Shown piece by piece: positions 1 to 2,899 of a stretch of DNA of 43,154 nucleotides (the stretch's first letter is position 1; the number at the start of each line of letters is the position of its first letter). The stretch spans positions 1 to 43,154 of the forward strand of contig OZ223513.1 in assembly GCA_965140785.1 (NCBI GenBank). The letters are read 5' to 3'. This stretch comes from an uncultured Ruficoccus sp. (lineage in GTDB: Bacteria > Verrucomicrobiota > Verrucomicrobiia > Opitutales > Cerasicoccaceae). The position numbers and the translations under genes are program-made. A model generated the notes under the pieces. That model had not been told where the DNA came from. It did no database searches and worked only from the letters and a program-made list of their open reading frames with translations.

Positions 1-1203
1 TTGCACCGTAATCATATTAATTACGGATTATTCTTCCGATAGCCTGCATAATATTAGGAAAAATTATATTATTTACTTAATTAGTTGTTCGAATAGTCTG
101 TAAATCATACCATTCCTTTGATCTAATATTCTATCCACTCTATGACTTTTAGAACCTTTAATCTAAATACTCTCGTTTCAGTTAAACTTTTTTTTCTTTA
201 ACTAATAAAAATAAAGTAAAAATTAAAATATTATATTAAACCAGGTGGATAAGGAACACCTACAATAATAACAGCTCTAATTCTCTCTGCAGGAAGATCA
301 ATTCCTTCTGCAATTTTACCTCGGCAAACACATAACATTGCAGCTCCCTTTGAACTCATCGCATCTTTAACATACGATTTGATTTACTCTTTAAATTAAC
401 TAGAATTTTACGATTCTTTATAAAGTCTTTTAATTTAACTCATTCGTTTCAAAAGTGAATTCGTTAACGACCAAGCGGTATAACATTAATTTAAAAGAGA
501 ATAGGAAGAAAAAACAATAAGAATCCCGTTTGGTATTTTCGCAAATAAATGTAAGAAGGATTCACCGAGTTCTGTTATTAATTGTTCGTTTGAACGATTC
601 TCGTAACTGAAATTAAATGGTATGTTATTTTTCCCATACGATAAAATAAAAGCAATAATATTTTCCTTCATATCCTTAATATGTGCATTAGCCAAAGTGA
701 CTTCGAACGGAATTTACAATGATTATGAATACGATTAAAACGGTTACAGTGTACCTGAGGTTAAAATTATAGAATTTACCCTTTTTGATATTATTTTTTC
801 TATTGCTAGTTTAGGATTAAAGCACCAGAAATTTAATACTACGAGATCTGAATCTCTTGTTTCTGGGTCATTACGGATATAGATTTTGAAATGGTTGATT
901 GAATTTGTATCAAAATTTTATTCAGTTTGAATTGAGTTATCTTATTTCATTAAAGTACATGTTAACTAGAATAATAAAAAAAAGCTTTTTGTAAAAAGAA
1001 ATAATAATAAATTTTACATCAAGAAATGCATTCCATTTATCCAACCCATAAGTCTAATAATAAGGAGCCACATCCTCTATAGCTCTTTTCAAGATCTTAA
1101 TATAATTTTCAAGATTTGCGATATTTAAGCCTTAACGGAAAATATAACTACATTTTTAAGAAAGTTCTAGTGTTTAAGGATCTGAGGTTGATGATATTGA
1201 GGT
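1..1203 (-). CDS. Partial eukaryotic RTEL1/FANCJ-like (XPD/Rad3 family) DNA helicase gene, TAA/TAG=Gln code, 3 introns; cut by the window edge and by the junction at ~1203
   Basis: Hand translation of the minus strand with TAA/TAG=Q gives LNFWCFNP, SIILTSGTLQPF, IPNGILIVFSSYSLL, GAAMLCVCRGKIAEGID, RAVIIVGVPYPP and WYDLQTIRTTNQ/AIGRIIRNQYDYGA. About 22 in-frame TAA/TAG and no in-frame TGA; very AT-rich. Confidence 0.92.
44..76 (-). other. Spliceosomal intron (33 nt)
   Basis: GTAAAT...ATGCAG on the minus strand; removal restores the conserved helicase motif VI NQ|AIGRIIR. Confidence 0.85.
202..241 (-). other. Spliceosomal intron (40 nt)
   Basis: GTTTAA...TATTAG, almost pure A/T; removal restores the frame PYPPV-KEKKVQLKREYLD. 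Confidence 0.85.
966..1017 (-). other. Spliceosomal intron (52 nt)
   Basis: GTAAAA...TTCTAG, T-rich; removal joins ...WNAFLD to LTCTLM... in frame. Confidence 0.75.
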
Positions 1204-1871
1204 AAGCCCGAGATGAGGGAGAAAAAAGTTGTCAGGTCCACGCCCGGCGCCAGCGGCCAGTCACTCAGATAGAGCAGAAAGCCCACGTAGGGAAAAATCA
1301 CGGCGGCAATGACGACATCGGCCTGCCGCCGCGCGACCGGCTCCTGCCGGGGAGGCAACCGCACAATCAGGTGAATAAGCCCCAAAAGTCCCAGGAGCAG
1401 GACGTAAACCGAGTCCACGATATACCAAGGGCCGGCGTGCAACTCCAGCCATGAGCGCGAGCCGTCCGTAGTCACTTTAATCGAATCATAGAACAGGCCG
1501 TGATGCCCGTTGGTAACTTGGAGGACCAACGTAACAGCGGGAACAATCCAGATCCCGACTTTCATGTTCCAACTCATCCGCCGCATGCCCAGAAAAGAGC
1601 GCACGATCAGGTACGTCATCGGCGCGATCAGGATGACGCCGGGGTACTCCAGTTTGAGCCAGAAGCGCATTCCCTCCTCGTTCAGGCTGGCCAGCTCAAA
1701 GGAATAGGTCAGGCTCCACCAGCCCAGCGCCCCCATCAGGACCGAAAACATCTTCCCGATACGCCCGTACTTGCCCTGCAGGGTTTCCAGACACAGCCAA
1801 AAGGAAACCAGCGCTGGAGCCACCAGAAAAAGGCTCCAAAAATTGGGGGAAAATGAAAAACCTGAGCCCAT
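1204..1871 (-). pseudogene. HisKA_7TM (7TM sensor) domain protein, truncated at the junction with the eukaryotic DNA
   Basis: Multiple TM helices with WWSLTYSFELAS, LEYPG, TNGHHGLFY, GPWY, VDLTTF motifs typical of HisKA_7TM. No cytoplasmic PAS/kinase/GGDEF follows; the ORF track stop at 1167 lies inside the AT-rich segment. Confidence 0.75.
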
Positions 1872-2032
1872 GCGTCCGGCCAGTCGGGTCGTTGTTTTTA
1901 AACAGCCCTTACGTATCGCCTCCAGCCCCCTGGGTCAAGCGAGGGTGAGCTGAAACTTGGCCGTCTCAACGCGGCCTTCGCTCCGAACGGAGATTGCCCG
2001 CCACTGACGGATGGGATTCATCAAAGCGCCTA

Positions 2033-2071
2033 CAAAAAAAACCACCCCAGCCTGAGCGGGGGTGGTTTTTG
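2033..2071 (-). terminator. Rho-independent terminator (potentially bidirectional) after the PEP-CTERM gene
   Basis: AAAAACCACCCC-N10-GGGGTGGTTTTT hairpin with A/T tails on both sides, about 20 bp past the stop at 2094. Confidence 0.8.
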
Positions 2072-2093
2072 AAAAAAGGCGGGGTCTTTAATG

Positions 2094-2684
2094 TCAGCAA
2101 ACCGCTGCCACGACCCGTTTTTTACGGCGGTACAGGGCCACTCCGACCAGGCCCGCCATCCCCATCAGCAGTGCGGTGGTGGAGATTTCCGGCACAGGCA
2201 CAGCCGAGAGGGTCACGGCCTGATCCGAACCGAGTCCCCAGGAAATCGTCTGGTCGATCACGCCGAGGCTGGACAGCTCGGTATCCGGAACGGTCAGGGT
2301 GCCATTGAGCTCCCCGGAGGTGAAACCGTCGGGAACGTAGAAATAAAGGTTACCAAAGAGAATCTCGATGCCAAAGCTGTTGCCTGAGCTAGATCCCACC
2401 TTGTTATTGAAAGTTTCCGAGAACAAACTGGCGCTCGACATCACGGTGTAATAGTCGTCATTCGCCTTATAGGAGGAGATGGCCTGGAGGGGAGTAGTTT
2501 GGATTCTCGCCATCTCAACGGTACTCTCCCCAGCGAACGTCAGCCCTGAAATGTTGACATTGCCCGAAGCAGTGACCAGCACACTGCTGCCTGATTGCGT
2601 GAAGCTAAGGGACAGAGCCGCCGAAGCGGACTGTACCAGACACCCGGTGACAATCAATAGCACAGAGCAGAGAACCTTTTTCAT
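2094..2684 (-). CDS. PEP-CTERM sorting domain protein
   Basis: Signal peptide MKKVLCSVLL...ASA; C-terminal VPEISTTALLMGMAGLVGVALYRRKKR. Start moved to the ATG at 2684. Confidence 0.88.
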   Translation of the reverse strand: MKKVLCSVLLIVTGCLVQSASAALSLSFTQSGSSVLVTASGNVNISGLTFAGESTVEMARIQTTPLQAISSYKANDDYYTVMSSASLFSETFNNKVGSSSGNSFGIEILFGNLYFYVPDGFTSGELNGTLTVPDTELSSLGVIDQTISWGLGSDQAVTLSAVPVPEISTTALLMGMAGLVGVALYRRKKRVVAAVC

Positions 2685-2899
2685 AAGTACCGAAAAACTA
2701 AGCAGATCACGCGCCATGTAAAGATTTTTACATAAGGGTTACTAATGTATCAGATTAGAATAAGTATTATTTCGTAAAAAACAAGGGAGGTATAACATTA
2801 CCAGATACCCGATATTTATTAGCTATCTCCGGATGGTGCCCCCAACCGCCGTAAAAAATATTGGCAGCCCGGCCCGATGCCTGCAATTCTCGTATCTTT

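Follow-up and report, generated by a model that had tools for sequence, protein, structure and literature searches.

A probable ciliate helicase gene fragment joined to a Verrucomicrobiota contig by assembly

RTEL1, of the XPD/Rad3 superfamily, and FANCJ/BRIP1 appear to be the closest described relatives of a gene fragment found at one end of a bacterial contig. The fragment resembles RTEL1 in helicase domain 2, where it carries TSGTL, CRGK..EG.D, and NQAIGR..R. It differs in that the Pfam ARCH_RTEL1 profile is not matched above its cut-off on the part present, and in an identity of at most 44% among the matches listed. FANCJ/BRIP1 (PDB 9ej9) is its best match among solved structures, with an E-value of 1.4e-27 over query positions 59-281.

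A second described system is the ciliate nuclear code (NCBI table 6) in combination with short spliceosomal introns. The fragment is alike in both respects: TAA and TAG stand in frame, TGA is absent, and GT-AG introns of 33-52 nt are removed in a contig from one public sequencing run (X5). Ciliates also use codes other than table 6, such as the one described for an oligohymenophorean ciliate with split UAA and UAG meanings (PMC10553269).

Chimerism and contamination of prokaryotic assemblies are a known problem, which is addressed by GUNC (10.1101/2020.12.16.422776 = PMC8201837). The contig described here shares with such cases an abrupt change in composition, the presence of genes from two domains of life, both of them cut, and the lack of any contig across the join. 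It differs from them in that the contaminant is eukaryotic and uses a variant code, with 0 ORFs of at least 100 aa under table 11. The window, that is, the whole stretch of DNA analysed, is the complete contig C42 (OZ223513.1; 43,154 nt) of a 50-contig, 4.36-Mb assembly assigned to an uncultured Ruficoccus sp. Positions 1-1203 very probably represent a fragment of a ciliate nuclear gene, encoding an Fe-S helicase of the RTEL1/FANCJ branch of the XPD superfamily, that was joined to a Verrucomicrobiota contig by assembly.

Gene structure in the AT-rich end

The GC content of the window is 0.28 over positions 1-1000 and 0.27 over 1101-1200; it rises to 0.56 over 1201-1300 and lies at ~0.5-0.7 from 1501 on. 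With the standard or bacterial code, the AT-rich part contains no frame that reaches 100 aa; the longest stop-to-stop frame inside it spans 75 aa. The preliminary description of this DNA, made from the letters and their open reading frames, had likewise held that these 1.2 kb look non-coding in the standard code. When table 6 is applied, a 327-aa frame at 105..1088 and a second frame at 2..355 are open on the minus strand, and the two match adjoining parts of the same Pfam profile. A low-GC bacterial island or a prophage was considered for this stretch and rejected, as no standard-code ORF reaches 100 aa and homology is found under table 6 only.

After removal of three GT..AG segments, the minus-strand frame is open from 1203 to 1 and comprises 359 codons. 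Exon piece A (1018..1203, minus strand) contributes 62 codons, which correspond to the end of the ARCH region, are open under table 6, and are in frame after splicing. At its upstream end this piece is truncated by the chimeric junction; contigs of 4/4 runs cover it and then differ from the window past 1204. Intron 1 (966..1017, minus strand; 52 nt, GT..AG) leads to exon B (242..965, minus strand), with 241 codons plus 1 base, which contains the start of helicase domain 2 and motifs IV-V, including the stretches TSGTL, CRGKIAEGID, and VGVPYPP in this order. Intron 2 (202..241, minus strand; 40 nt, GT..AG) separates exon B from exon C (77..201, minus strand; 125 nt), whose last codon, a TAA at 79-77, corresponds to the motif-VI glutamine. 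Intron 3 (44..76, minus strand; 33 nt, GT..AG) falls between N-Q and A-I-G-R of this motif. Exon piece D (1..43, minus strand) reads AIGRIIRNQYDYGA and runs off the contig end, within the region that matches positions 97-146 of the Pfam Helicase_C_2 profile. The GC contents of introns 1, 2, and 3 are 0.13, 0.07, and 0.18, respectively, compared to 0.30 for the exons.

The gene model can be compared with contigs of public runs. A 1943-nt contig of run X5 (record 12) aligns to window positions 1-42, 76-201, 242-965, and 1018-1204, while its own coordinates are unbroken. This contig is without exactly the three predicted segments, all of which are retained in the contigs of runs X1, X2, and X3; the X3 contig additionally has a 16-nt deletion at 983, inside intron 1. 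Exactly the 52 nt of intron 1 and 33 nt at intron 3 are skipped, and both skips are bordered by CT..AC when read on the plus strand, equivalent to GT..AG on the minus strand. Across intron 2, the X5 record passes from its position 703 to 704 while the window passes from 201 to 242. One row was dropped from the listing of X5 joints, at the skipped repeat 203-230, and we infer that this row is the joint of the 40-nt intron 2, for which the listing has no entry. Because the three GT-AG segments are exactly absent, the X5 contig is read as a putative transcript. An mRNA origin is the simple reading, with a processed DNA copy as the alternative. Introns of 33, 40, and 52 nt with GT-AG borders had been proposed in the preliminary description, and the intron-less contig yields the same lengths. 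The recoding and splicing carried out there by eye proved accurate to the base. Ciliate internal eliminated sequences (IESs) were also considered for the three segments and rejected, as the segments start with GT and end with AG and are retained in the DNA-like contigs from three runs.

Identity of the helicase and its likely source

The 327-aa frame matches the Pfam family Helicase_C_2 over profile positions 3-97 (E 1.7e-20; 74.1 bits, cut-off 25.3), and the frame at 2..355 extends the match over positions 97-146 (3.8e-06; 27.5 bits). Motif VI (Q..GR..R) is present as NQAIGRIIR after splicing, and its Q, its G, and both R residues are invariant in a 40-sequence alignment. Solved structures matched after FANCJ are human XPD (5e-25), yeast Rad3 (4e-22), and CHL1 (2e-20), and the score of FANCJ is only slightly above that of XPD. 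A first rank of FANCJ among PDB entries does not make the gene a FANCJ, because no chain named RTEL1 is among the 14 matched PDB sequences. The earlier proposal of an RTEL1/FANCJ-like helicase, to be checked against the XPD family, is borne out by the Helicase_C_2 match and by the FANCJ, XPD, and CHL1 structures.

The domain content of the best 40 library matches gives further orientation. Helicase_C_2 is found in 40/40, DEAD_2 in 33/40, ARCH_RTEL1 in 28/40, a RING finger in 10/40, and HHD_RTEL1 in 4/40. On exon B, the ARCH_RTEL1 profile (PF23109) scores E = 2 and 8.8 bits (cut-off 27), with only the end of the domain present and this end split by an intron; exon A gives no match to the same profile. 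The fragment (~359 residues) corresponds to residues ~409-720 of homologues of ~900-1230 aa. The Fe-S/DEAD_2 half would lie upstream of the junction, and the C-terminal tail, with harmonin-like domains or a RING finger, beyond position 1. A tblastn search of the whole assembly (table 6, 3 homologues) did not find the N-terminal DEAD_2/Fe-S half. Judged by sequence, the fragment is the C-terminal half of an XPD-superfamily helicase that is closest to RTEL1/FANCJ. Within the RTEL1/FANCJ branch it is probably RTEL1-like; a tree in which no row is a labelled FANCJ or DDX11 does not tell RTEL1 from FANCJ.

The source organism was approached by homology searches and a tree. A homology search with exon B (241 aa) as the query returned 17 proteins at E <= 0.001. 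The best named match is from Paramecium pentaurelia (1.3e-43, 37% identity), followed by Pseudocohnilembus persalinus (3.5e-43, 43% identity) and Paramecium sonneborni. Further matches are from Drosophila, Moneuplotes, Intoshia, and Anaeramoeba; these are named RTEL1 or have RTEL1-specific Pfam domains, and the Drosophila protein carries both ARCH_RTEL1 and HHD_RTEL1. In an exhaustive search of 1.84 billion representatives, 3868 proteins reached E <= 0.001, and 172 of them E <= 1e-30, with 1.2e-42 as the best value. Identity to known proteins is 37-44%, and none exceeds 44% among the matches listed from these 1.84 billion representatives.

The tree (LG+G4, quick search, SH-aLRT support, no bootstrap) covered the query span, using the 571 columns in which at least half of the rows have a residue. 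Its 46 rows are the query, the 17 proteins from the exon-B search above, and 28 others; 118 of the 163 proteins collected were left out. The fragment groups with Pseudocohnilembus, a four-row Paramecium clade, and an unnamed protein, seven rows in all (SH-aLRT 85). The Moneuplotes RTEL1 falls outside this group, as do the animal, Babesia, and Anaeramoeba rows. The fragment stands among RTEL1-named rows and is set apart from three XPD-like outgroup rows with an SH-aLRT of 100.

A ciliate of oligohymenophorean type is most likely the source, and the protein collections searched contain no close relative of it. At an identity of 37-44% and an SH-aLRT of 85, placement in the ciliate lineage has moderate support. 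A ciliate had been suggested before any search was run, with the expectation that the best matches would be ciliate proteins rather than bacterial DinG; Paramecium and Pseudocohnilembus do head the named list, and the tree group agrees, at the low identities given above.

It is very unlikely that the gene comes instead from a non-ciliate eukaryote with TAA and TAG as glutamine, such as a diplomonad, an oxymonad, or an ulvophyte/dasycladalean alga. The code alone cannot separate these lineages from ciliates, and the low identity to ciliate proteins leaves some room for such a source. Against it stand the best named matches and the tree, which joins the fragment to ciliates and separates it from animals, the apicomplexan, and Anaeramoeba, which we take to belong to Metamonada, in a set of rows without any diplomonad, oxymonad, or ulvophyte. 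A coding GC content of 30% together with very AT-rich introns of 33-52 nt also fits ciliate genomes.

Reading of TAA and TAG

The spliced frame contains 19 TAA and 3 TAG codons, and canonical glutamine codons number only 3 (2 CAA and 1 CAG). The total of 22 reassigned codons is exactly the approximate figure given in the preliminary description. TGA does not occur in the 359 codons present, the true end of the gene being off the contig; when the spliced sequence is read in its other two frames, TGA occurs 7 and 9 times. To examine the meaning of the codons, the spliced product was aligned with 163 proteins from two homology searches. At the 22 columns with TAA or TAG, glutamine makes up 13.9% of homologue residues, compared to 4.0% over all query columns, a 3.5x enrichment. 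E, K, R, D, or S is dominant at most of the other TAA/TAG columns.

The TAA at 79-77 had been singled out as the glutamine of NQAIGR. This column is Q in 159/159 homologues that have a residue there. Because this TAA sits on the invariant motif-VI glutamine column, TAA is glutamine in the fragment. The three TAG codons of the window are on variable columns (E/D/Q, K/Q/R, and one that is gappy). The earlier claim that TAA and TAG occupy glutamine positions holds for TAA, through the invariant column and the enrichment, and TAG is found on variable columns only. For TAG, glutamine is the putative reading.

Indirect support for TAG as glutamine is provided by a second contig of the assembly, C20, which ends in an AT-rich tail (described below) that may derive from the same organism. 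In the PI-PLC-X domain encoded there, 2/3 TAG codons align to glutamines of PLC-delta1, in the stretches ..EQQ.. and ..PEQLK... Codon usage in this tail is the same as in the fragment (TAA >> TAG >> CAA/CAG). A search for tRNA genes, and hence for a suppressor tRNA-Gln, found none in the AT-rich tails of the assembly or in window positions 1-2703.

A variant ciliate code that gives TAG a meaning other than glutamine would suit the positions of the window's three TAG codons, which give no fixed meaning. In the oligohymenophorean ciliate with split meanings, UAA is reportedly lysine and UAG glutamate. Such a code is highly improbable here: the TAA at the invariant glutamine rules out a non-glutamine meaning of TAA, and the PI-PLC-X codons of the C20 tail argue for glutamine at TAG, if the organism is the same. 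With TAA and, by inference, TAG as glutamine, the helicase gene would in its own organism be transcribed, its three tiny GT-AG introns would be spliced out, and both codons would be decoded as glutamine.

The junction and other foreign DNA in the assembly

The preliminary description had located the gene at the end of a bacterial sequence. This position is real in the deposited contig, and it was made by an assembly chimera at 1203/1204, where the GC content steps. The junction was tested by aligning contigs (Logan) of four public runs, X1, X2, X3, and X5, to window positions 1-2400. A contig bridging 1203/1204 is found in 0/4 runs, and both sides continue otherwise. Contigs of the ciliate part, namely record 1 of X1 (9652 nt, depth 20.4), record 7 of X2, record 11 of X3 (depth 496), and record 12 of X5, pass 1204 in 4/4 runs with an identical 30-nt consensus that is unlike the window. 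In X1, the bacterial side is represented by a separate 2943-nt contig (depth 2.6), which agrees with the window at every position of 1204-2400; ahead of 1204 it carries 1201 nt of different, GC-rich sequence. The two sides share a single base at the join. Within 1-2400, the contigs of X3 and X5, which belong to two other studies, cover the ciliate part only, which is not taken to mean that the bacterium is absent there, and those of X1 and X2 (study P1) cover both parts.

The bacterial gene at the junction encodes the 7TM region at the N-terminus of a histidine kinase (1205..1871, minus strand; frame 1934..1205), with a match to Pfam HisKA_7TM at 4.5e-40. The start at 1871 is a reading based on the first Met in frame. 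The gene is cut at the junction after the 7TM part, and the assembly lacks the kinase part. In the GC-rich continuation of X1, the kinase frame stays open (...ISG-FLLAAGIFRY), and in the AT-rich continuation the helicase frame stays open (RDLFKLLSDH-TSISS...); both were read by hand. As each continuation keeps the frame of its own gene open, both genes are intact in nature and owe their truncation to the join. Both 30-nt continuations are absent from the whole assembly with up to 2 mismatches allowed. The cut histidine-kinase gene was also sought in 20 relatives, with a match in 0/20.

The window and the run contigs differ at positions 291, 327, 555, and 780; at three of these sites the window differs from all four runs, and at the fourth from three. 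All four lie in exons; a single one alters the protein, from Phe to Leu, and the other three are synonymous. They are more suggestive of a ciliate allele than of read errors; the bacterial part is identical to the X1 contig. As the window differs from the run contigs, these are not the exact reads behind its ciliate part. Because rare variants are lost from Logan contigs, a genuine junction molecule of low abundance is formally possible.

The ciliate fragment stands next to bacterial DNA through an assembly chimera. Real lateral transfer, in which ciliate DNA would have been integrated into the bacterial chromosome, for example in a symbiont or prey of a ciliate, accords with the contiguity of both sequences in the deposited contig without Ns and with the joint occurrence of bacterium and ciliate in samples X1 and X2, but it is extremely improbable in view of the 0/4 runs with a bridging contig, the bacterial contig of X1 that runs through the site and continues the kinase frame, the unequal depths in X1 (20.4 vs 2.6), a fragment that is cut mid-exon at both ends with its introns kept and 22 in-frame bacterial stop codons, the ciliate-type tail on the high-GC contig C20, and the tail of like composition on C39. 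Because of the mid-exon cuts, the introns, and the in-frame stops, the fragment is not expressible in the bacterium. The case is one of contamination, not gene transfer, and no cross-kingdom transfer is involved. An assembler or a chimeric read would have joined two co-extracted DNAs at 1203/1204, and this join would have cut both the helicase gene and the bacterial histidine-kinase gene. The fragment would be without function in the bacterium.

C20 is a second and larger ciliate-bacterium chimera of the same kind. This contig is high in GC up to ~59.88 kb and has ~22% GC from there to its end at 93.8 kb (59,880-93,795, ~34 kb). Frames in the tail are open only when TAA and TAG are read through, and they match PI-PLC-X (4e-46), EF-hands, UCH (3e-42), cyclophilin (3e-28), Pkinase (3e-46), and WD40. 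The Pkinase frame has 12 TAA and 2 TAG codons inside. For the UCH gene, a homology search gave 3 matches only, at 23-27% identity. A third contig, C39, consists of a high-GC part of 276 kb and a 30-kb tail of ~22% GC (276,020-305,856), in which 3 standard-code ORFs of at least 100 aa occur. Two domain matches in this tail, Hydrolase_4 (alpha/beta hydrolase; 3.6e-4) and Ribosomal_60s (P-protein; 0.063), are both under their cut-offs. With its like composition and this weak gene evidence, the C39 tail is probably more ciliate DNA. Telomere-type repeats were not found in any contig of the assembly.

Several other regions are also unusual in composition. Just before the AT-rich tail, the bacterial part of C39 contains an island of ~40% GC (272,200-276,000). 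It carries an RVT_1 reverse-transcriptase frame (5e-19, 395 aa) with 4 in-frame TAA/TAG codons, as read under table 6, and may be a retron, a group II intron, a defence-type reverse-transcriptase island, or a third source of DNA. C28 (13 kb, 28% GC throughout) encodes a GntR regulator and has standard-code frames of up to 503 aa; it is likely from a low-GC bacterium, binned by mistake, and not from the ciliate. C9, C41, and C44, at ~38-40% GC, have a composition foreign to a genome of ~60% GC.

The genome is listed at 1.21% contamination despite the ~34 kb of ciliate-type DNA on C20. Variant-code DNA yields no bacterial-style ORFs, so contamination checks that are based on markers or ORFs would miss it. 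Anyone looking in this genome for "eukaryote-like" genes, or for unusual AT-rich islands that seem non-coding, would be led astray. The practical value of the finding lies in cleaning the record, as a species-representative genome carries ciliate DNA, with 1.2 kb on C42 and ~34 kb on C20; for the ~30-kb tail of C39, the indication is a like composition with weak gene evidence only.

The repeated joins between ciliate and bacterial DNA could reflect a standing association, with the Verrucomicrobiota member as a symbiont, an epibiont, or a regular prey, although we regard this as rather unlikely. If such an association were true, DNA of the bacterium and the ciliate would always be co-extracted. 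The biology of the fragment itself is ordinary: an RTEL1/FANCJ-type helicase gene of a ciliate, with the well-known code in which TAA and TAG specify glutamine, and with short introns.
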